In this document: positions 3,809-43,505 of the stretch, piece after piece
Layout: every line of letters begins with the position of its first letter
Numbering within the stretch: the first letter of the stretch is position 1
From: Escherichia phage LHE71
Reading direction: 5' to 3' (one strand)
Sequence record: OP455115
DNA length: 50,158 bases
Notes under the pieces: model-generated
Told to the model about the DNA's origin: nothing
Seen by the model: only the letters and a program-made list of their open reading frames with translations
The model's database searches: none
Program-made: the position numbers and the translations under genes

Positions 3809-3865
3809 GAGTGATTCCTCGTTTGTTGGTGTAGGGGAATCATAGCGCATTCCCCTTGATAGGTT

Positions 3866-4084
3866 TTAGCAATTCGTGCTATTCGTTTTAATAGTGATGC
3901 AAAAATAATTTTTTAAGCACGTCACCACGCGCGCTGAATCGACTTGTGGAAGCCTTAAAATTTCATGGACCAGTTGCACTGGCGACACCTCAGATTTGTA
4001 GTAGTGTGCGATTCTGGAGGTGTTTGGGCGCATTCCTTCCACTGCGTCGCGTGCTGCATCTTCTGCTGTCATGATAGTAGCCAT
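3866..4084 (-). CDS. Hypothetical protein
   Basis: 72-aa ORF with AAGGGTG SD; its 3' end runs into the palindromic motif. Confidence 0.4.
   Translation of the reverse strand: MATIMTAEDAARDAVEGMRPNTSRIAHYYKSEVSPVQLVHEILRLPQVDSARVVTCLKNYFCITIKTNSTNC
3867..3881. promoter_or_regulatory. Palindromic intergenic motif instance (TAGCAATTCGTGCTA)
   Basis: Inverted repeat; 22 nt to TATGAT on the minus strand, with -10 inside a hairpin loop. Confidence 0.45.
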
Positions 4085-8866: not shown

Positions 8867-8981
8867 AGCTTTCTCCTTAGTTTCAATATACACAATAATT
8901 AACGCGTAACAGCGTGTCTCTGATTGCAGTGTTACACGTCGACCCGCTTGTGTCAATGCTTACAGGCCGATTTTAAGTGTG

Positions 8982-9008
8982 GTTAATCGTGTTAATCGTG
9001 TTAATCGC
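8982..9008. repeat. Tandem 9-bp repeat (GTTAATCGT x3)
   Basis: Three direct copies in the divergent control region. Confidence 0.6.
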
Positions 9009-9120
9009 TTTTCCCATATAAATATGAGCCGATAAAACTACTGTATATATAAACATGAATATCATAATCAGAGCATCCAACGATTAACATAGTAGACACG
9101 CTATACAACCATGTTACAGA

Positions 9121-9196
9121 TAATATCATCTATATATATAAATAAAAAAAATACTTATATATTATATATATACATATATCTATATGTATATTATAA
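9121..9196. repeat. AT-rich (TA)n tract
   Basis: About 75 bp of near-pure A/T with TATATATA runs in the divergent intergenic region. Confidence 0.6.
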
Positions 9197-9216
9197 GGCG
9201 TAATTTGGCGTAATTT
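9197..9216. repeat. Tandem 10-bp repeat (GGCGTAATTT x2)
   Basis: Two perfect direct copies. Confidence 0.55.
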
Positions 9217-9285
9217 TGTCTACAATTGCGATTCAGGCAAATAGTATACAACTGTTAACACAAAATCAATTGTAATCGTAATCGA

Positions 9286-9300
9286 TAGCACGTTTTGCTA
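9286..9300. promoter_or_regulatory. Palindromic intergenic motif instance (TAGCACGTTTTGCTA)
   Basis: Inverted repeat in the control region; no obvious -10 at the usual 22-nt spacing. Confidence 0.35.
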
Positions 9301-9490
9301 AAAATGGAGGTGACTACCGGGCGAACCGGGTAACACTAATTCCTCCCTCTCACAATCATTGCATTCTAAGCAACAATCACATCAACAGTTGCACACCATG
9401 CAACAATCACATTTCATCATTCGCAATCAATCACAATCAAAATTATTCCAGATATTCCAGTATTGATGGAATAATGAGCAACTATTTGAA

Positions 9491-9505
9491 TAGCATTTTT
9501 TGCAA
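9491..9505. promoter_or_regulatory. Palindromic motif of rightward early promoter module
   Basis: TAGCATTTTTTGCAA, then 22 nt, then TATGAT (9528..9533), conserved leader, SD GAGGAAG, ATG at 9568. Confidence 0.5.
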
Positions 9506-9567
9506 AGCATCAGCCAGGTGAATCGGGTATGATTCATCTCATCAACCAATCAGTAGAGGAAGCAGCA

Positions 9568-9693
9568 ATGAGAGTTAAACAGATTTGTAGTCAGTGTGCT
9601 GGTCGTGGTTTTACTCTAGTCCCGTTATTCACTGGAGTCTGGACAATGCAGCGAATCACGTGTCCGGCCTGCAACGGTCAGGGTAAGCGATAA
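9568..9693 (+). CDS. Small zinc-ribbon protein (41 aa) with two CxxCxGxG motifs
   Basis: ORF absent from the supplied track (below its size cutoff); SD GAGGAAG 6 nt upstream; CSQCAGRG and CPACNGQG match the DnaJ-type zinc-finger repeat. Confidence 0.45.
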   Translation: MRVKQICSQCAGRGFTLVPLFTGVWTMQRITCPACNGQGKR

Positions 9694-9716
9694 GGTCAAT
9701 CAGGAGAATGCAACAA

Positions 9717-10423
9717 ATGAAATTAATCTGGTCACTATTTGACGGTTCAGGTCTTGCTGGTCATGAGCTGGCAAAGCAAGGTCACAAGGTGATGTGCTTC
9801 AACTTTGACGGAGCCGATCACGGTGATTACGCAAAGTACAATGCCAGAGTCGAGCATCCGAACATTGAGTATGTGAACGTCTTCATTGATGAGAAGTTCG
9901 AACGTGATGCTATCGCTGGCGTGTACGGAAAGCCGGATTTTATTATGGCCTTCCCGCCGTGCACTGACCTGGCTGTTAGTGCCGCCGCCGCCTCTTTGCC
10001 AGCAAGCGTGAACGTGATCCGTTATTCCAGGAGAAGGCTGTTGCCACCGCAAGGATTGCTGCGAACATTGGCGAGGCGCTTGGTGTTACTTACATCATTG
10101 AGAATCCGGTGAGCGTCCTGTCGTCTGCGTGGAGAAAACCAAATCACTCCTTCAATCCCTGGGAGTATGGCGGCTATCTTCCCGAGAATGACGTGCATCC
10201 CTGGTTCCCGATGTATATTGCGCCGCGAGATGCTTACCCGAAGAAGACTTGTCTGTGGACCTCTGACGATTTTGTCATGCCAAAAAGGAAACCTGTAAGA
10301 CTGCCTGACGGGTACTCTGCACAGCAAAACAAGCTGGGCGGCAAGTCTGCCAAAACGAAGCTGATACGATCCCTGTCGCCGCGTGGATTTTTCAAAGCGA
10401 TCGCAAATAGCACTTTTTGTTAA
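9717..10423 (+). CDS. DNA (cytosine-5)-methyltransferase-like gene interrupted by a -1 frameshift at a GCC repeat
   Basis: N-terminal frame has motif I-like LFDGSGLAG and motif IV-like FPPCTDLAVS; downstream frame has RDPLF and IIENPV (motif V/VI-like); frames switch within 9980..9992. Confidence 0.4.
10408..10422. promoter_or_regulatory. Palindromic motif of promoter module
   Basis: TAGCACTTTTTGTTA, then 22 nt, then CATAAT (10445..10450) and leader TACCTCATCGAAACGAG. Confidence 0.5.
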
Positions 10424-10482
10424 AACTCGAACGATATGATTTGGCATAATTACCTCATCGAAACGAGATTGAGGAAAACAAA

Positions 10483-13003: not shown

Positions 13004-13018
13004 AGCACTTTTTGCAAA
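13004..13018. promoter_or_regulatory. Palindromic motif of promoter module
   Basis: TAGCACTTTTTGCAA, then 22 nt, then TATCAT inside a CGGTGT/ACACCG hairpin. Confidence 0.45.
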
Positions 13019-13074
13019 ACGCGTGTACCATTGGCGGTGTATCATTTACACCGTCAACTAAGGAGTTTATTGTG

Positions 13075-14643
13075 ATGTTTAATATTAAGCCAAAACTGAA
13101 TTACCAACAGATTATTGAGATCGCCAATAGCACTGGAGTTAATCCGGTGGCGATCGCAATTCGTGAAAACAGCTATGGTGACTCAGTTTCATTTTGGCAA
13201 GATCCGATCGATATCAATAGCGGCAACGATAAGTTCCCTCTGATTTCGTTAGGTGGCAATAACTTGGTATTCGAATATGCAAAAGCAAAGGCCGAGTCTG
13301 TACAGTTCCCTGTTTCGTCTGCGTACGCTCATTTCATTGGGTGCATCTCAGCCGCGATGCTCGGGAAGTTTTGGGTGAAATATCACGGAGAAGAGCAACC
13401 GACCGCTCTTTACATGGTGATTAGCCAGCCACCTTCAACAGGTAAATCAGCGATCAACTCAGCGGCTATAACGCCTATGCGTGCAGAGATTCAGCGACTG
13501 AATGAAGAGCGCAAAAAGGAACGCACCCGATTAACCAGTCAGCTACGTCAGGTCGAGAAGGAAATTAAAAACGACCCGAAGGGTAACACGACGGCGGCGC
13601 TGTACGAGGACAAGGAAAAACTGGAAGAGAAGATTAAGAAGATGGCTGATATTGTTTTCGCGGTATCAGATCCAACACCTGAAGGTCTAGCTAAGGTGGC
13701 GGCAGTGCAAGGTCACTTTTCCGTAATATCTGACGAGGCAACGGCAATCAATACATTGCTCGGTCTTACGTATGGAGGTTCTGATAAGAAATCAAACAGC
13801 GAGCTTATCCTTAAGGCGTGGGATAAAAACCATATGGAGGTCGCGCGTTCAAATCAGGACAATAACTTATCTCTTTGCCCGGTCGGTTCGATCTGCGTCA
13901 TTGCGCAGGATGAAACAATCAAGGGTATCATGGACGCAGGCCAGCGCGGTATCGGTGTATCTGAGCGTTTCCTTTTGGTTCGCGAGGAGCCGCTTTTAGG
14001 TACTCGTATTCTTTGTGATGAAAATGGTGATGCACTGTATAAAGAAGTCGATCGCGGACTGGTTAGCAAATATTACAGACTCGTGCACAACATCATGAAG
14101 GAGGACAACGTTGTTCTCTCTGTGAGCCGTAATGCTATGCGTGAATTAAACCTTGCGCGCCAGGCGATGGAGCCTGATTTCGCCGCCGGGGGAAAATACT
14201 CTCACTCAATGCTTCGCGGTCATCTCGGCAAGTTCGATAAGCACGCCTTGCGTATTGCTTCAGTTCTCCACACGATCAAGAATTGGGAGGGTGAATCACC
14301 GAACCGTTCCAACCGTGAGATTGACCTTGAAACAATGCAGGAAGCAATCATGATCTTCAATGAGCTTTCCAGGACTTATCTGTCGTCTGCCAGCGCTGCC
14401 GGGTATGCTGGTGATGAGGCTGAATCTCGTAAGCTGATTGATGTTATCACTGATATCGCAAAGAAGAATAAAGGGCGCGCTCCTATTCATAGCATCGTTG
14501 CAAAGTGCCGGAACGTTACGCCGTTCAACGGTCAACAGAAAGTATCTGAGCGAATCGACAGCCTGCTGATTACGCTCGAAGAGATGAATTACACTTGCCG
14601 CATTGATGATATTGTTTTCATCAATCCTCGACTGATGGGTTAA
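13075..14643 (+). CDS. P-loop NTPase, putative replication/primase-associated protein (DUF3987-like)
   Basis: Start at MFNIKP with SD AAGGAG; Walker A PPSTGKS and Walker B-like VISDEA. Confidence 0.55.
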   Translation: MFNIKPKLNYQQIIEIANSTGVNPVAIAIRENSYGDSVSFWQDPIDINSGNDKFPLISLGGNNLVFEYAKAKAESVQFPVSSAYAHFIGCISAAMLGKFWVKYHGEEQPTALYMVISQPPSTGKSAINSAAITPMRAEIQRLNEERKKERTRLTSQLRQVEKEIKNDPKGNTTAALYEDKEKLEEKIKKMADIVFAVSDPTPEGLAKVAAVQGHFSVISDEATAINTLLGLTYGGSDKKSNSELILKAWDKNHMEVARSNQDNNLSLCPVGSICVIAQDETIKGIMDAGQRGIGVSERFLLVREEPLLGTRILCDENGDALYKEVDRGLVSKYYRLVHNIMKEDNVVLSVSRNAMRELNLARQAMEPDFAAGGKYSHSMLRGHLGKFDKHALRIASVLHTIKNWEGESPNRSNREIDLETMQEAIMIFNELSRTYLSSASAAGYAGDEAESRKLIDVITDIAKKNKGRAPIHSIVAKCRNVTPFNGQQKVSERIDSLLITLEEMNYTCRIDDIVFINPRLMG

Positions 14644-22589: not shown

Positions 22590-22618
22590 TTGAATCGTTG
22601 TAACGTTTACGCTATAAT
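22590..22618 (+). promoter_or_regulatory. Sigma70-like promoter for the Cro-like gene
   Basis: TTGAAT, 17-nt spacer, TATAAT; flanked by inverted repeat AACGTTTAC/GTAAACGTT. Confidence 0.5.
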
Positions 22619-22641
22619 ACACGACATACAGTAAACGTTTT

Positions 22642-22656
22642 TAGCAAAAAGTGCCA
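22642..22656. promoter_or_regulatory. Palindromic motif, shared by divergent helicase and Cro-like promoters
   Basis: TAGCAAAAAGTGCCA; 22 nt from TATTAT on the minus strand; lies downstream of the plus-strand promoter. Confidence 0.45.
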
Positions 22657-22669
22657 CAGGAGAATTAAG

Positions 22670-23122
22670 ATGAATATGAAACGTATCGCAGAGTCAACTG
22701 GTGAAATCGATAAACGTCACATTAATGGTAACAACGGAACGCGACGCGGTAAAGACAAAAAGCCTCGCCAACGCTGCGGATTCTATATTCACAAAGAAGA
22801 AACACGAGCAGGACTGCGAGCGCGACTTGACGCTCTTATTGAATATTACGGCGGCCCAGCGGCTTGCGCAAAGGCTCTGAAAGTTAGCAACCAGACGGTT
22901 CAAGGGTGGAAGGATCGAAATATGATTTCCTGGCAAGGCGCTGAAGCGGCGCATCGTGCTTATCGCCGACAGGGTTGCAAAGGATTTCGGGCTGCATGGC
23001 TGCGATTCGATCTGAAGTTTGATGGGAACGGCAAGTGCCTTGAGAAGCGCTGCAAAAACAAGAAGTTTATGCGGGTCGTGAAGAAGGAAGATATTGGAAC
23101 GACAAATAGCATTTTTAGTTAA
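22670..23122 (+). CDS. Cro/YdaS-like HTH transcriptional regulator
   Basis: HTH segment YYGGPAACAKALKVSNQTVQGW; SD AGGAGA. Confidence 0.55.
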   Translation: MNMKRIAESTGEIDKRHINGNNGTRRGKDKKPRQRCGFYIHKEETRAGLRARLDALIEYYGGPAACAKALKVSNQTVQGWKDRNMISWQGAEAAHRAYRRQGCKGFRAAWLRFDLKFDGNGKCLEKRCKNKKFMRVVKKEDIGTTNSIFS

Positions 23123-24174: not shown

Positions 24175-24181
24175 CTATGTT

Positions 24182-24196
24182 TAGCAATTCGTGCTA
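24182..24196. promoter_or_regulatory. Palindromic motif in operator position of tail fibre promoter
   Basis: TAGCAATTCGTGCTA between the predicted -10 and the SD AAGGAG. Confidence 0.45.
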
Positions 24197-24217
24197 TTTA
24201 CTTAAGGAGTTTATACT

Positions 24218-27212: not shown

Positions 27213-28277
27213 TTACTTGTTTTGATATCTTACCCATGACGGCGTTTCAAGTTCGATCTCGCTTGCGTCGCCAGCATATCCGGGCCAAACGTCCATCTCA
27301 GAGCAAGCCTTATAAGTGTGGACCACGCTAATATACTGATTGCGACCTATTCTGATTTGCTCCATAGTCATGCGGTAAGCAAGGGCAATGTAAGGTTCCT
27401 TTTTCTCCTGTGCCAGCAATCGAACTACGATCGGAATATCTTCCGGGAAGTTTCCTTCAAATGCTCCAGCCTGGATTGCACGTCGCAGCAGGTCGTGCTG
27501 CAATGCCATTTTCAGGTAATAGCCGTGATTGTATGCCAGGCGCGGGAACTCTAACGGGTTAGCGCTCATCGTGGTTTTGAAGTCAGTGATAATCAGAGCT
27601 TCAGGAAAAATCACGTCTTCAAATACCGGATCGCCATTCTCATCATAACCAGTCAGCACACGACCCGGAACATTCTCTTTGTAGTCAAGATGGTCGATCC
27701 GAACCTTAACTTTGACTCCGGATATCTCACCGAAGATTGAGATCTCACGCTGCGCCGTTTCGCTGTTGATGCACGCCTCATGATCAGGATTTTGCTCAAG
27801 TATAGCCCTCATCTTCATGCATGCGTCGTATTTGTCAGCATCAACAAGTTGCTTTCCTTCAGCGCGCGCCTCAGCTTCTGCGATCAGTTCAATCAGGTAT
27901 TGAACGTTTAGTTCCTCACCACAATCAACCATCATTTTGATGAGGTCCGGGTACTGCTTACCGGATGTACCTTTCAGGCCGAATGATTTTAATTTTGCTG
28001 CCAGCGCCGCCTGCGAAGTAATCAGATCCTTAAACTCTGCCGGAGCCGGGCAACGGGCATACGATGCAGTAAACAGATCTCGGCTCTCAAAGTTGGTATG
28101 CGACTGAGTACCGAACTCCAGCGCTTTCGTTGTCTCATTCTTCTTGAATCTCCAGTTAGCCGGGCAAGTTTGATAGATTTCTGCAAGGCTCGATCCGCTA
28201 ACATACTCTGCCGACCAACCTTCGTTACTATGATACTCGTCATTAGAAAGCTGACTTGATGTGAATACTTGGAACAT
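27213..28277 (-). CDS. Recombination-associated exonuclease (PD-(D/E)XK-like)
   Basis: 354 aa, SD AAGGAG; IITDFKTT segment; sits in operon with Erf and SSB. Confidence 0.5.
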   Translation of the reverse strand: MFQVFTSSQLSNDEYHSNEGWSAEYVSGSSLAEIYQTCPANWRFKKNETTKALEFGTQSHTNFESRDLFTASYARCPAPAEFKDLITSQAALAAKLKSFGLKGTSGKQYPDLIKMMVDCGEELNVQYLIELIAEAEARAEGKQLVDADKYDACMKMRAILEQNPDHEACINSETAQREISIFGEISGVKVKVRIDHLDYKENVPGRVLTGYDENGDPVFEDVIFPEALIITDFKTTMSANPLEFPRLAYNHGYYLKMALQHDLLRRAIQAGAFEGNFPEDIPIVVRLLAQEKKEPYIALAYRMTMEQIRIGRNQYISVVHTYKACSEMDVWPGYAGDASEIELETPSWVRYQNK

Positions 28278-28586
28278 TGCGTTTATCTCCTTCGTTTACG
28301 ATAAATCCATTATAGCCATTAACAGCGTTTAGTCAATCGAATACATGTAATTGGTGTGTAATTGCGTGTCTATATTGCTCAAGTTACAACCAGCATCAGC
28401 AGAATCAATGTCTTAAGTCGATTTTTATGCACTGTATATTGCGTAACACTTGTAACCGCTTTTTCTTAGAAATACAGAGATACCTACAAATAGAATCCAC
28501 ATTGATTAAATTTTGAACATACATGATAGAAATTTTACGAATCAATCAAATCACCTGTTACACGATAGACAACTGTTACACAACAA

Positions 28587-28650
28587 TAATTATATATATA
28601 AAGCTAAAATTAAATATTATCTATCTATATATATTATATAGAGTTTTTAC
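28587..28650. repeat. AT-rich (TA)n tract in second divergent control region
   Basis: Near-pure A/T with TATATATA runs, flanked by GTTACAC-type short repeats. Confidence 0.55.
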
Positions 28651-28803
28651 CATATCTACCTGCGGTCGAATGAGGTCGATTTTGTAACACCTCTTCCAGT
28701 TACAAAAATATACACCTGTTACGCGAAAAAATTGTAATCGCACTATTGCAATAAAAGTAAATGCGACATACAATGCAATCACACTAACGACGAGGACATA
28801 CAA

Positions 28804-29031
28804 ATGAAAAAGTTAATCACCATTATCGCTGCGGCATTCATCCTGACTGGTTGCTCATCGATGCCTGAGCGCACTTGTACGGCAATTTATGAATCAGGCG
28901 GCGCGGAGTACTCGGTTTACGTTTTTGGATCTAAGATGCGCGGAAATGAGATGGTATTGCGTGCTGGATACCCATTCTCCTTCAACTATGTATCAGAGAA
29001 AAACTTCAAATCTCACGATTGCTCGATATAA
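28804..29031 (+). CDS. Small outer-membrane lipoprotein, Cor/Llp-like superinfection-exclusion candidate
   Basis: 75 aa; signal peptide with lipobox LTGC; lies next to the distal tail genes. Confidence 0.5.
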   Translation: MKKLITIIAAAFILTGCSSMPERTCTAIYESGGAEYSVYVFGSKMRGNEMVLRAGYPFSFNYVSEKNFKSHDCSI

Positions 29032-29053
29032 AAGAAAAGCCCCGAAAGGGGCT
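29030..29053 (-). terminator. Rho-independent terminator
   Basis: Stem AGCCC/GGGCT followed on the minus strand by TTTCTTTT; end of the late operon. Confidence 0.55.
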
Positions 29054-29742
29054 TAGTCGTATGCTGCCGTTTTGATTGCTGTTATAATATTTCCATTATT
29101 CGTTGTGTTCATTATCTGACCTGCCGCAGTGGTTGCTGCTGCATTTATTCTCGTTGTGCTCCCGTTGTACCTGCATGAACTGCCTGCTGTTGAGTTTCCT
29201 ATTATTGGTTGCCCAGTTGGCAACCTGCCAATAACAACTTGATAGTTGCCAAGTATAGTTGGAACAACCGCGTAGCTTCCGCTGAGTGTTGTGTCTATGT
29301 TTAATCCACCGCCAGCGTATCCAGGAGTGCCGATTGTAACCAAATCACTAAGGACCTTTGTCTCATTTGTCAACACTAGCTTTCCTGACGCATCCCATAT
29401 TGCCATACCCCAGCTAGGTAGTGACTGCTCAAATATGGCAAATATGTAGTATGTTAGCGTGTATGATTGGTTTGCTGGATTTGTCCCCCTTATATAAACA
29501 GTTCCAACATTGGGTCCGCTTCTGAAAGTAAAGGCTGAAAGCGCGGTCCCCTGCTGCGTGTTTGTTGTTTTGCAAAAAGCTATAACCGGAACACCTGTAG
29601 GTATCCGAACATATCTCTCTGCAACCTGCGAACCACTAACATTTACTGATTGAATTTCCCCTCTCGCATATAAAGCGAATGGCGTTGATAACGGGGTTAT
29701 GAATGGGTTTCCGTTTACATCTATAAAAGCACCGTATGACAT
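29053..29742 (-). CDS. Distal tail protein, receptor-binding candidate
   Basis: 229 aa Gly/Thr/Asn-rich beta-type sequence downstream of J. Confidence 0.4.
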   Translation of the reverse strand: MSYGAFIDVNGNPFITPLSTPFALYARGEIQSVNVSGSQVAERYVRIPTGVPVIAFCKTTNTQQGTALSAFTFRSGPNVGTVYIRGTNPANQSYTLTYYIFAIFEQSLPSWGMAIWDASGKLVLTNETKVLSDLVTIGTPGYAGGGLNIDTTLSGSYAVVPTILGNYQVVIGRLPTGQPIIGNSTAGSSCRYNGSTTRINAAATTAAGQIMNTTNNGNIITAIKTAAYD

Positions 29743-30047
29743 TAATCATTCTCCAGATATGCTATTAAGTAACAGTTTGATGATGGGTACACGTTTGGCC
29801 CAGGTGAGTTTGTTGGCGTTACTGTTATCGTATTACCGCTAGCAATAATTTTCCTGCCAGGCCCACTAATGGCGCCATCGTCAAGGCTTATAACGTAGTT
29901 CACATGCATACCAGGAGGCACTTGATAGCTGAACGATGCTGAATTCTGGCCTGCTGACAAAAAGTTCCAACCAACAACCGTAACAGGCTTAATCCCATAG
30001 TTATTATAAACGCCATTTGCGTCCCAAGTTGATATACCGTACGCCAT
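29742..30047 (-). CDS. Tail-associated protein
   Basis: Start at MAYGISTW with SD GGAGGA; shares WDA(S/N)G motif with 29053..29742. Confidence 0.4.
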   Translation of the reverse strand: MAYGISTWDANGVYNNYGIKPVTVVGWNFLSAGQNSASFSYQVPPGMHVNYVISLDDGAISGPGRKIIASGNTITVTPTNSPGPNVYPSSNCYLIAYLEND

Positions 30048-30092
30048 AATAAATCCTCCAAAAGAAAAGGGCATCTCTCGATGCCCTTGATA

Positions 30093-33000
30093 TTACCATG
30101 AGCCAGTCAACCTGCCAATCTGAACCCTCAGGCGACCACTCGAATCCCTAACAGATATTGTGGTATTAGTTTGCTTCATCGCACCCTCACCATCACTTCC
30201 GTAGTTTTCAAATGTACCTCCCTTGTCAAGTCTCCAGCCAGCCTTGTTAACGACATAGTTATTCGATTGAATAACATTACCAATCATCGCATTCGTGATG
30301 AATCCGTTCTTAATGATGGCACTATTAAGAATCACCTGATTACCTTCAACAACAAAAGGGTACTGAGTCTGACCATTCATCCCTGTCATGATTGCAAATC
30401 GTGATGCCTCAAACAAAATCTGCGCCTTAACCGCAGCTCCGGAACCAATCAGAGACATAGCCATGCCTGCACTGTATTCTTGGCCGTTATACTTCAGACC
30501 GAGCTTGATGCCGTACATTGCACCAGTCGAATCCGCATTGCTCCACGAGTCAAGTTTTTGAGAAAGTGCTGCCTCATTATTCCCAAGCCTCGCGCTTAAC
30601 GACAAGTCAGCTTGCGTTCTCGCCTCAGTCTCGTTTGCTATAGCCTCTCTGATATCAGTCAAACTTGCCTGGATATCATCACCAATCTCTGCCTTGAGTT
30701 GGTCAATTTCACGCGATAGCGCTCCAGTCTCAGTTGCGATAACTTCACGCAATTCGCTGTTGCTAGCGCTAATCTGATCGCCAAAACTTGCCTTCAATTG
30801 CTCGATCGCCGTCACTCGTGCCTGCGTCTCATCAGTAATAAGTTTCAGTGATTTCGTGTACTCAGCTTTTCGTTTTCCGTTCTCCTTCTTCATGTATATC
30901 GCGTCTTTGTCATTGGCGAGCGCGTTTTCTATTACTGCCTCTGCGTTAGCTGCGTTCTGCGCCGCGTTGTCGGTTGCGTTATCAACAAGCCACTCGTAAC
31001 CAGGCGAGTTTTCGATATCGACAGAAATCTCCCCAATGATATCGTCAACGTTTGTTGATGCCATACCTCTGACAAAATCAGTCCACTGAGACACGTTACC
31101 GATCCTATCAACCGTCCTTACCCGATACCACACAATATTCCCTCCAGGCATCGGTGAGTGATAATACTCATGCTGCGGGTACGGAATCAAAGAAAGCAAA
31201 CTTGCGTTATCCACTGTTCCATCTGGCGACTGTTGCAACTCTGTATAGGCCGTATCTCCAGAACCATCAGAGAATCCCCATTTTGTACGGATACCAAAAA
31301 CAACATCATCCGTAGCTGTAAGGTTAATCGGTCGACCCGGCTCTCCTTGCTTGCCTGTCAACGTCGCTGCGACGATATTTGACCAGCCGGAAGTTGTACC
31401 AGAACCAGCAACGGAGCGAACGCGAACCTGATAGTTTCCAGCGTAAATACCTTCAACGTATACCTCTTTGTTTGCTGTCTGCGGTACATTTTGCCAGTTG
31501 CCATTATCCTTTCGCCACTGTACGTCATAGAAAACTGCGTACGGAACTTTATCCCAGCTAACAATCATCGTTTCTACGCTCATCCCCTGGACGATTCTCG
31601 ACTCTGAGGACACCTGCACGTTTTCCGGTCTAGGGATCTGATCTGGCTCAACGATGCTCGTCGGTCGGTCGTCGATATTAACTCCGTAATCAATCTCATC
31701 GTACTTGTTAGGATCGTACTCCACCGCCGTGATTTTGTAGGTAAATTCCTCATCATCATCGCCCTTATCGATTTTTGTCACTACGTACTGCTGTAACGCA
31801 ATGTCGGTGCGGTCGATAGCGAATACCGTGTTAGGCTTCACAGGAAATCCAAAGCCAATGTTAACCTCTATAGTCTTACCATCCGCACTAACACTTGAGA
31901 TTGTGCGCTTCACGGGCTTGCCATCTGGCTTATTTACGATAATAAAGTCACCCGCGCGTGCATCCACCCGGAACGGCAAGAAAATCTGACTACCGGATAC
32001 TTCGAGCAAGCGCCCTGATAGGTTCATCGTCAAGTTACTTGACCAGAAGTTATCAGCTATTGCCACAACATCTCCGATTGTCGGGATCATGCCCTCAAGC
32101 CCGGTAGCGAAGTTTACCGTGGTGCTGCGGAGGTTAGTTTTCAGAATCCATCTCCCGCGTCGGTTGGCCTCACTGCGTCGGGTACATCCGATTGCTGTAA
32201 TACTGGTTACGTTGTTCCCGAACCGCAGAGTAGCCTCTCGATCGAATACTGGCTCAACGTCCTGTTGATACATGTTTTGCTCATCATCAAACATCACGTT
32301 ACACGTCGTGTACATGCTTTTCTCGCTTGCAAACGTGTAGGAGAAGTCTCCATTAACAACGTTGTCGTTCGTGAAGATGTACGCAGGTTCACGCGGTCTG
32401 TCGATGATTACAGAAATGCTTTCACCATTCCAAAAGCTCATTCCTCGGAATATTGAGCAAATGTCTCGAATCACTTTGTACGCATCAGTTTGTGACTGAA
32501 TTATCACATCGCAAAGGTAGCGAGGCTCAGTTCCACCCTTTCCATCTGGAACCATCTGATCGCAATATTGCGCAGCCTCATAGAGCGCCCATTTATCAAC
32601 GGAGATTCCAAGCTCTTTCTGATCCAGTCCATAACGCTGATTAATCATCAGGTCATAAAGAACCCACGCCGGATTATTAGTCCACGCCTTCTTGAAAGTT
32701 CCATCCCAATTGCCGTTATAGGTTCTCGATTCAGGGTCGTAATTCGATGGAACGTTAATAATCTTCCAGCGCTTACGAATTGAGATCGTAGGTAGTTGAT
32801 TTGGGAACATTTTCGAATCAAACTCGACAAAAAGAAGACCAGTCAGGGGATAACGGAACTTGGCATCTATAACCTCAGCGTAGCTTTTTACCTGAATTGC
32901 ATCGACAACGTTTGAGTTATCAGAGTCTGGAGTCTTTCTAACAATCCTGAATATCACTTGGTTATTGAAGTTTGGTAAGTTTATTCGACGACTTCGATCG

Positions 33001-43462: not shown

Positions 43463-43469
43463 TCAATAA

Positions 43470-43484
43470 TAGCACTTTTTGTTA
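43470..43484. promoter_or_regulatory. Palindromic motif instance upstream of the capsid gene
   Basis: TAGCACTTTTTGTTA adjacent to the hairpin containing CATAAT. Confidence 0.45.
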
Positions 43485-43505
43485 AAGCGTCAAAGTGTTT
43501 TTATG

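Follow-up and report, generated by a model that had tools for sequence, protein, structure and literature searches.

The DNA considered here is a stretch of 50,158 nucleotides from Escherichia phage LHE71 (record OP455115), referred to below as the window. Its source is a T1-like phage of the genus Tunavirus in the family Drexlerviridae, and the whole window is ~95% identical to T1. The element under study, region 2, is the gap that separates recE (27213–28277, minus strand), which encodes exonuclease VIII and whose start codon ends at 28277, from cor (28804–29031, plus strand), a superinfection-exclusion lipoprotein gene. Downstream of recE lie erf and then ssb. A first-pass annotation of this DNA had described a 526-bp gap between the recombination operon and the lipoprotein gene, and these boundaries are exact. 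Identity with T1 and IME18 is ~95–96% over positions 28100–29050. Region 2 is mostly without annotation in public records, and none of the records examined labels it an origin. The parts of region 2, those of its paralogous copy, region 1, and two candidate trans-acting proteins are listed in Table 1.

Table 1. Features of the two intergenic modules and of the candidate phage-encoded binding proteins, in window coordinates.
Feature	Position	Strand	Composition and remarks
Region 1, paralogous copy	8868–9528	none	between divergent blocks of small early genes
Region 1, left array	9087–9119
Region 1, AT core	~9115–9195
Region 1, tandem	9197–9216		GGCGTAATTT x2
Region 1, right array	9217–9278
Region 1, ATAGCAC box	9285–9303
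DUF3987 protein	13012–14643	+	MCM-like AAA+ helicase with C-terminal winged helix; putative trans-acting factor
Cro-like helix-turn-helix (HTH) protein	22670–23122	+	150 aa; putative alternative binder; weak Pfam match to P22_Cro; "transcriptional regulator" in PHROG
Region 2 (526-bp gap)	28278–28803	none	between recE and cor; ~95% identical to T1 29604–30555
P_recE	28309–28336	−	sigma-70 promoter, TTGACT-16-TATAAT; 11/12 matches
Distal left repeats	28347–28458	none	GTAATTG x2 (28347, 28358), GTTACAA (28383), GTCGATTTT (28417), GTAACAC (28443), GTAACCG (28452)
Left proximal array	28552–28583	+	CACCTGTTACACGA, TAGACA, CAACTGTTACACAA; ACA triplets 9 bp apart; abuts core
AT-rich core	28584–28650	none	near-palindrome, arms 28591–28611 and 28613–28633 (inverted repeat I1)
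Tandem TGCGGTCGA / TGAGGTCGA	28661–28679	+	most variable stretch within Tunavirus
Right array	28680–28740	+	TTTTGTAAC-N10-GTTACAAAA (perfect 9-bp inverted repeat), TATACA, CACCTGTTACGCGA, TTGTAATCG
P_cor	28746–28774	+	sigma-70-like, TTGCAA-17-TACAAT; 9/12 matches; overlaps degenerate ATAGCAC-type box

The description of region 2 as non-coding is borne out, as the small open reading frames (ORFs) of the gap carry no coding signature. Record AY216660 annotates a 46-aa coding sequence in the gap, and some other records list hypothetical proteins there. The 46-aa ORF is open in 15/15 Tunavirus sequences, and its variable columns are spread over the codon positions as 10:14:12, compared with 9:2:49 in recE. 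Between 4 and 14 of the 15 sequences have a broken copy of each of the three other gap ORFs, and in this set no codon-position bias was found for any small ORF of the gap, the 46-aa coding sequence included. Rfam searches at gathering threshold over the whole window and a permissive scan of 28200–28900 returned nothing credible, and a tRNA scan found none. These null results and the missing coding signature argue against a structured RNA, a tRNA, or a small protein gene.

Exact copies of GTWACAC are located in region 2 at 28443, 28557, 28575, and 28684, together with the variants GTTACGC (28718) and GTTACAA (28383 and 28699). The five repeats of the first-pass annotation are confirmed as repeats, but were placed 2–5 nt upstream, since they mark the longer forms GCGTAACAC, CTGTTACAC, and TTGTAACAC, and the one assigned to 28723 actually occupies 28716–28724. 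Compared with 5000 first-order Markov simulations of region 2 itself, GTWACAC occurs 4 times versus 0.18 expected (P about 2e-4), GTWACA 11 times versus 1.07, and GTWAC 8 times versus 1.34, the last count being reached in 0/5000 simulations. It had been proposed that the repeats could be dismissed if their counts matched base composition; because the observed counts are far above the Markov expectation, this refutation fails and the repeats are real. Over the whole window, GTWACAC is not over-represented (10 versus 7.6 ± 2.9), and 7 of the 10 sites fall inside regions 1 and 2, which make up 2.4% of the window, as do all five of the TGTWACA palindromes (5/5). The presence of the repeat in 8906–9335, also reported earlier, is reproduced at 8906, 8929/8931, 9113, and 9330. 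Among 23 dereplicated loci, the distances between ACA triplets peak sharply at 9–10 bp, approximately one helical turn, with a second peak at 19–20 bp; the z-scores of these spacings are inflated by the relatedness of the loci, which leaves the peak positions unaffected. Region 2 therefore contains the cluster of short repeats, here predicted protein-binding sites, that is typical of an origin composed of iterons and an unwinding element. An IHF-like core, AATCAATGTCTTA at 28403, is found among the distal left repeats and is not conserved.

Region 1 is the counterpart of the joined ends of the published T1 record. Smith–Waterman alignment of regions 1 and 2 gives a score of 69, versus 25.5 ± 3.2 for shuffled sequences, with the two regions collinear and in the same orientation, and region 1 is the sole other match (E = 2e-7) when region 2 is searched against the window by blastn. 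The modules are ~19.5 kb apart. The earlier observation of two similar regions about 19 kb apart can thus be restated as one of collinear paralogs. From left to right, the shared blocks are GCGTGTCT..ATTGC..GTTACA; CGATTTT with GTWAY repeats, ending in CGCTTTTC; an array of TAGACA / TATACA / TGTTACA with an ACA every 9 bp; the (TA)n core followed by a short tandem repeat (GGCGTAATTT in region 1, TGCGGTCGA / TGAGGTCGA in region 2); and TATACA-CTGTTA(A)C with TTGTAATCG. The distal left repeats of region 2 likewise have homologous blocks in region 1 (GCGTGTCT...GTTACA and GTGTTAATC repeats). Within Tunavirus, region 1 exists as two mosaic variants, type A with GTTACA/GTAAC repeats and type B with GTGACA/GTCAC repeats, whose flanks differ strongly and whose core is almost invariant. 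The mosaic versions include the adjacent 191-aa gene, with 46–53% protein identity (8868–9280 compared with loci L055, L057, L058, and L061). At 8979–9006, three tandem 9–10-bp copies of GTG(G)TTAATC are observed where region 2 has GCGTAACACTTGTAACC, an expansion specific to type A region 1.

The AT tract placed by the first-pass annotation at 28587–28650 as (TA)n is present, but is actually composed of (TA)5 at 28591–28600 plus (TA)4 at 28626–28633, and these runs sit in a stretch that peaks at 81% A+T per 100 bp. Measured over 80 bp, the region-1 core (at ~9115, −72.0 kcal/mol) and the region-2 core (at ~28576, −77.9 kcal/mol) are the two least stable sites of the window, for which the mean is −109.1 kcal/mol (standard deviation 5.9) and the third-ranked site is −90.0 kcal/mol. 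Four whole genomes were added for comparison: SRT8 (Sertoctavirus), TLS (Tlsvirus), Rtp (Rtpvirus), and KP36 (Webervirus). In each of them the least stable pair is again the cores of regions 1 and 2 (5/5 genomes including the window). In these five genomes the cores are 4.5–6.3 standard deviations less stable than the genome mean and 7.5–12 kcal/mol below the third-ranked site, so that an easily melted AT-rich region of the kind expected in an iteron-type origin is found in every genome examined. The core is also more conserved than coding DNA: among the 15 Tunavirus sequences, 6% of columns are variable in the AT core and 14% in the left array, versus 20% in recE coding sequence, where the variation is mostly at third codon positions. 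Spacers 28657–28678 and 28692–28700 vary freely, whereas the motifs stay fixed.

A comparable organization is observed throughout the family. In 46 IMG/VR loci with a recE relative (43–99% identity), nearly all of them T1-like contigs of ~50 kb, there is a peak of 80–86% A+T upstream of recE, located ~220–310 bp upstream in 44/46. An alignment of 13 representatives reveals a single architecture with nine successive elements: P_recE; repeats in inverted orientation; a conserved AAAATCA..TAAGT..TGATTTT block; further repeats and TTTGCGCC; direct repeats abutting the core; the AT core, partly conserved in sequence (ATATATATAAATAAATAAACT..ATTTT.ATATATTATAGA); a ATTTTGCGC-type palindrome; direct repeats; and a rightward promoter in most lineages, followed by cor in many. 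The place of the ATTTTGCGC-type palindrome is taken in region 2 of the window by the tandem at 28661–28679, and in region 1 by the two copies of GGCGTAATTT. As in paired origins of the SPP1 type, the module is present exactly twice per genome in five genera. Collinear paralogy was established by alignment in SRT8 (Smith–Waterman score 96 versus 24 ± 2.7) and TLS, and by inspection of the sequences in Rtp and KP36, where long stretches of the AT cores are near-identical (~55 bp in KP36). The cores can be near-identical within a genome but are different between genera, which indicates concerted evolution. Two paired functions, as origins or as regulatory hubs, had been suggested in the first-pass annotation. 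This suggestion is partly supported, in that the pairing is real and far stronger than that annotation could show, with paralogous copies conserved as a pair in five genera.

The repeats themselves differ by lineage. T1 and Rtp have GTWAC(A), with GTATAC in addition in Rtp; SRT8 has ATTACA/TGTAAT in region 2 and TAGACA/GTGACA in region 1; TLS and many others have GAACA / GTGAACA; and KP36 has GTAAGAT / ATCTTAC. Judging from these sequences, GTTACAC is only the T1-lineage form of a set of lineage-specific repeats. The repeat type is common to both copies in TLS, KP36, and Rtp. A repeat that shifts by lineage and yet matches between copies is the pattern expected of sites co-evolving with a phage-encoded binder. 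A strict rule that both copies carry an identical motif does not hold: SRT8 and type B Tunavirus region 1 break it.

The genes around the module also differ between genera. TLS lacks cor, and the right-hand array abuts the terminator of a convergent tail gene. In KP36, the ssb-erf-recE operon and the upstream module are inverted relative to T1 (L065 32253–35008), and the far side of the module now adjoins the 3′ end of the primase gene. The two KP36 modules are therefore in inverted, not direct, orientation to each other. The right-hand array is kept in both TLS and KP36 despite the lack of a rightward gene, which argues that it does not exist to regulate such a gene.

In summary of the layout, short repeat arrays lie on both sides of a ~65–80-bp palindromic AT core that is the easiest-melting DNA in the genome. 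We interpret regions 1 and 2 as putative cis-acting replicator modules, a candidate pair of replication origins, and assign this reading a probability of about 0.4. The evidence leans toward it on account of the flanking repeats, the lack of a conserved core promoter, the persistent right array, and the presence of an MCM-like helicase with a winged helix. The AlphaFold model of this DUF3987 protein (predicted local distance difference test score 89, predicted template modeling score 0.87) has a C-terminal winged helix that matches the winged-helix domains of ORC, Cdc6, and MCM. The phage also encodes a primase with a T7-type zinc ribbon and an SF2 helicase. A DnaA-dependent, oriC-like origin was considered and rejected for the lack of DnaA boxes and of a GATC cluster: no consensus box (TTWTNCACA) and only one relaxed match occur in regions 1 and 2, and GATC is absent from both regions, versus 237 occurrences in the window (~5–6 would be expected by length alone, fewer given the AT-richness). 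Dam methyltransferase genes are annotated in the relatives TLS and KP36. GC skew tracks gene orientation and carries no information on origins, and a search of a plasmid collection with the module gave no match.

The putative origin module, unannotated as such in the public records examined, resembles known origin architectures. The Rep proteins of Staphylococcus aureus pathogenicity islands (SaPIs), one type of which is MCM-like, are self-loading initiator helicases that recognize penta- or hexanucleotide iterons, located to either side of an AT-rich region, through their C-terminal winged helix (PMC9371898). As in the SaPI origin, where short repeats in both orientations surround an AT-rich centre (PMC9371898), repeats here flank an AT core in a phage with an MCM-like helicase bearing a winged helix. 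Unlike in SaPIs, where a single origin lies immediately downstream of rep, there are two copies away from the helicase gene, and binding is predicted. In addition, no clear covariation with repeat type is seen for the T1-like winged helix.

The second comparison is with SPP1, a virulent, pac-packaging siphovirus in which oriL and oriR are similarly built from direct repeats together with an AT-rich unwinding element, lie ~13 kb apart, and include one copy placed in a long intergenic stretch (PMC6316719). The second SPP1 origin has been proposed to stall forks and thereby shift replication to recombination-dependent concatemers made by an exonuclease, an annealing protein, and a protein that binds single-stranded DNA (SSB) (PMC6316719). 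Similarly, two modules are present here at the spacing given above, and region 2 is directly upstream of recE-erf-ssb. SPP1 relies on its own origin-binding protein (gp38), which is distinct from its loader and its DnaB-type helicase, and oriL is inside gene 38; the helicases that turned up here are the MCM-like and SF2 proteins, in searches that were not aimed at homologs of gp38, gp39, or gp40. The repeats of the two systems are unrelated in sequence, and the origin role of the T1 modules is that of a candidate.

In satellite phage P4, ori and crr are distant cis regions with the same short repeat, TGTTCACC, bound by the winged helix of the alpha primase-helicase. The TLS- and Rtp-like arrays carry GTGAACA/TGTTCAC, a motif resemblance to be taken as a lead only. 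P4 alpha has a helicase of the SF3 class, not an MCM-like one, and crr is an auxiliary element, unlike the second complete module seen here.

A mechanism can be sketched in which a phage-encoded protein would bind the repeats on either side of the core, melt the core, and load a helicase. The MCM-like helicase is the prime candidate for the binder and would then be a self-loading initiator like SaPI Rep; the Cro-like HTH protein is an alternative. The phage primase and, presumably, a host polymerase would then take over (no phage DNA polymerase gene was noted), and the outward promoters at the edges, P_recE and P_cor, may assist the opening of the core. As proposed for SPP1 oriR, the copy adjacent to recE-erf-ssb could stall forks and switch replication to recombination-dependent concatemer synthesis. 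That all of this holds together, with two origins opened by a self-loading MCM-like helicase reading the lineage repeats and the recE copy doubling as a fork-stalling switch to RecE/Erf/SSB-dependent concatemer synthesis, would mean a SaPI/archaeal-type mode of initiation in a classical virulent coliphage, and we consider it quite unlikely.

Several observations weigh against an origin function. The modules lie in divergent promoter regions, and promoter biology could explain both the AT-richness and the repeats. The AT core is conserved in sequence beyond its composition, more than a simple unwinding element requires. Repeat type is not clearly matched by changes in the winged helix or in the HTH recognition helix, and on inspection the Rtp winged helix looks closer to that of TLS than to that of T1, although the Rtp repeats are T1-like. 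Some Tunavirus genomes have GTGACA/GTCAC in region 1 and GTTACAC in region 2, and the SRT8 copies differ too. The modules, at ~9.1 and ~28.6 kb, are separated from the helicase gene (13012–14643) by 3.7 and 13.9 kb rather than being immediately downstream of it as in the SaPI arrangement. Finally, the module always travels with recE, which fits a recE control region equally well.

The main rival to paired origins is that the modules are paired early-transcription control regions, in which a phage regulator such as the Cro-like HTH protein would act through the repeats as operator or enhancer arrays. This regulator would switch P_recE, P_cor, and the region-1 early promoters together, as lambda OL/OR are switched under one repressor, and the AT core would be bent or UP-like DNA, or contain weak promoters. 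We judge this explanation somewhat unlikely. The modules are located between divergent operons, the phage has an HTH regulator, and the module stays with the recE operon through the inversion in KP36. In a scan of 18 representative loci with a sigma-70 position weight matrix (PWM), P_recE alone is both strong and constant in its offset (17/18 loci, PWM score 13–15; L049 lacks it), and it is annotated as a promoter in AY216660 and phage Chapo; P_cor, or the right-hand promoter, is strong in some lineages only. As in lambda OL/OR, outward promoters are therefore present on both sides (P_recE 11/12, P_cor 9/12), and two paralogous regions beside such promoters could be run by one phage DNA-binding protein. 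The leftmost repeats start just upstream of the P_recE −35, the right array abuts P_cor or the ATAGCAC-box promoter, many genera share a minus-strand TATAAT at the right edge of the core, which is an annotated promoter in Chapo, and the Tunavirinae repeats GTGACA, GTTACA, TAGACA, and ATTACA resemble −35 hexamers.

Other features do not fit transcriptional control. The arrays lie outside the −35 and −10 hexamers, unlike the lambda operators, which are 17 bp long and overlap their promoters, whereas here an extreme AT core forms the centre of modules of ~400 bp. No conserved sigma-70 promoter is found in the central ~400 bp of the 18 loci; matches in the core are weak, and their position shifts between lineages. 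Regulated genes are not present on both flanks, as TLS and KP36 keep the right-hand array without a rightward gene. Nor would a regulator account for the cores being the least stable DNA in each of the genomes examined. The HTH gene itself has, at 22590–22642 in the 94-bp divergent gap that separates it from the SF2 helicase gene, a good promoter, TTGAAT-17-TATAAT, whose −10 lies between the arms of a perfect 9-bp inverted repeat, AACGTTTAC-N22-GTAAACGTT. This repeat is possibly an autoregulatory operator, and as a motif it is unlike the GTWAC arrays, which counts against the HTH protein as their regulator.

Transcription-activated origins are a further alternative. T7 and T4 origins consist of a promoter and an AT-rich stretch, and promoters at or in the core would here prime or open the origin, with the repeats recruiting RNA polymerase or an activator, not an initiator helicase. 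In several lineages, −35-like hexamers are followed 16–18 bp on by TATAAA/TATATA at the left edge of the core, and outward promoters are located at both edges. The PWM scores of these sites are low (6–9), however, their positions are not conserved, and the TLS GAACA and KP36 GTAAGAT repeats are not −35-like, which makes this explanation improbable.

The layout also resembles that of the SPP1 and P1 pac sites, which have an array-centre-array organization, and the modules could in principle be packaging sites, in which arrays bound by the small terminase flank the cut site. Region 1 contains the start point of the T1 and TLS records. The assigned pac, AGATTT, is the start of the TLS record, in which the positions of the first HindIII (5876) and EcoRV (2733) sites agree with the pac fragments that were published (PMC11447400). 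The assigned pac end falls ~100–300 bp outside the shared module, however, in an AATCA-rich segment specific to region 1, and region 2, ~19 kb off, lacks this segment, whereas the TLS paper has a single submolar pac fragment (PMC11447400). Packaging as the function of the shared module is thus very improbable, and pac was set aside as probably not its role. The segment in question (9340–9445) is rich in CAATCA/AATCA, with 5 exact CAATCA, and has counterparts in region 1 of TLS and SRT8 and weaker ones in Rtp and KP36. Position 1 of the T1 record corresponds to window ~9404, inside this segment; together with the TLS pac assignment, this makes the segment a candidate packaging-recognition region. 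The last explanation, which sees in the module either functionless AT-rich intergenic DNA whose repeats are due to chance, or else an unannotated small RNA or a small gene such as the one in AY216660, is largely refuted by the enrichment statistics, the conserved and duplicated family-wide architecture, a core more conserved than coding DNA, and the coding and RNA results given above.

The module is distinct from a second repeated element of these genomes, the 21-nt intergenic repeat of TLS and T1 (aaATAGCACnnnTTGnTAAAA), whose function is listed as an open question in the TLS paper (PMC11447400). In the window, ATAGCACNNNTTGNTAAAA has 24 sites with at most 3 mismatches, versus 2 expected, mostly oriented with the surrounding genes, for example 1847–1865(−), 3864–3882(−), 9285–9303(+), 10407–10425(+), 24179–24197(−), and 43469–43487(+). 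One copy is at the right edge of region 1 (9285–9303), and in loci L020, L027, L047, and L049 the region-2 homolog likewise has one at its right edge; region 2 of the window has a degenerate copy only. In other genera, a copy upstream of cor is followed ~21 nt on by cgTGTATAGT, an extended −10-like sequence, which suggests a promoter class with an upstream box. Unlike the module, the 21-nt repeat occurs in ~24 copies, one per transcription unit, and is without GTWAC arrays or an AT core. Identity of the module with this ATAGCAC..TTG.TAAAA repeat was rejected, as the latter is a separate element oriented with transcription.

Further observations concern neighbouring genes. In Tunavirus, cor has at least two very different alleles (228 versus 237/240 nt, with 57% of columns variable; window and T1-group loci L005–L017 and L036), and the module upstream of the variable alleles stays 90–95% identical; from this difference there looks to be a recombination boundary near 28850, between the conserved module and variable cor. 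The first rightward ORF after region 1 (9529–9693) encodes 54 aa with two CxxC pairs, zinc-ribbon-like, with a marginal PHROG match to Q-like antiterminators (E = 9e-4). The DNA methyltransferase gene at 9708–10423 seems to be split into the overlapping ORFs 9708–10112 and 10109–10423, where the ADB-2 record flags a "potential frameshift".

To our knowledge, the replication origin of T1 has never been mapped. No transcription-start or origin-mapping study of T1 or the Drexlerviridae was found in the literature, in a search that did not extend to the original T1 and Rtp genome papers. A 2024 re-annotation of TLS found no origin-like repeats anywhere in the genome (PMC11447400), and the SU57 genome paper reports no oriC-like site (PMC7718038). 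T1 is a founding model phage, and the present analysis gives two coordinates per genome, an architecture spanning five genera, and a named candidate initiator. If the origin reading is true, a virulent Gram-negative phage family would join the systems that use MCM-like self-loading helicases, and the Drexlerviridae would follow SPP1 as a second case in which paired origins are tied to a recombination module. Should the modules be purely regulatory, they would still define a shared control element of Drexlerviridae early operons.

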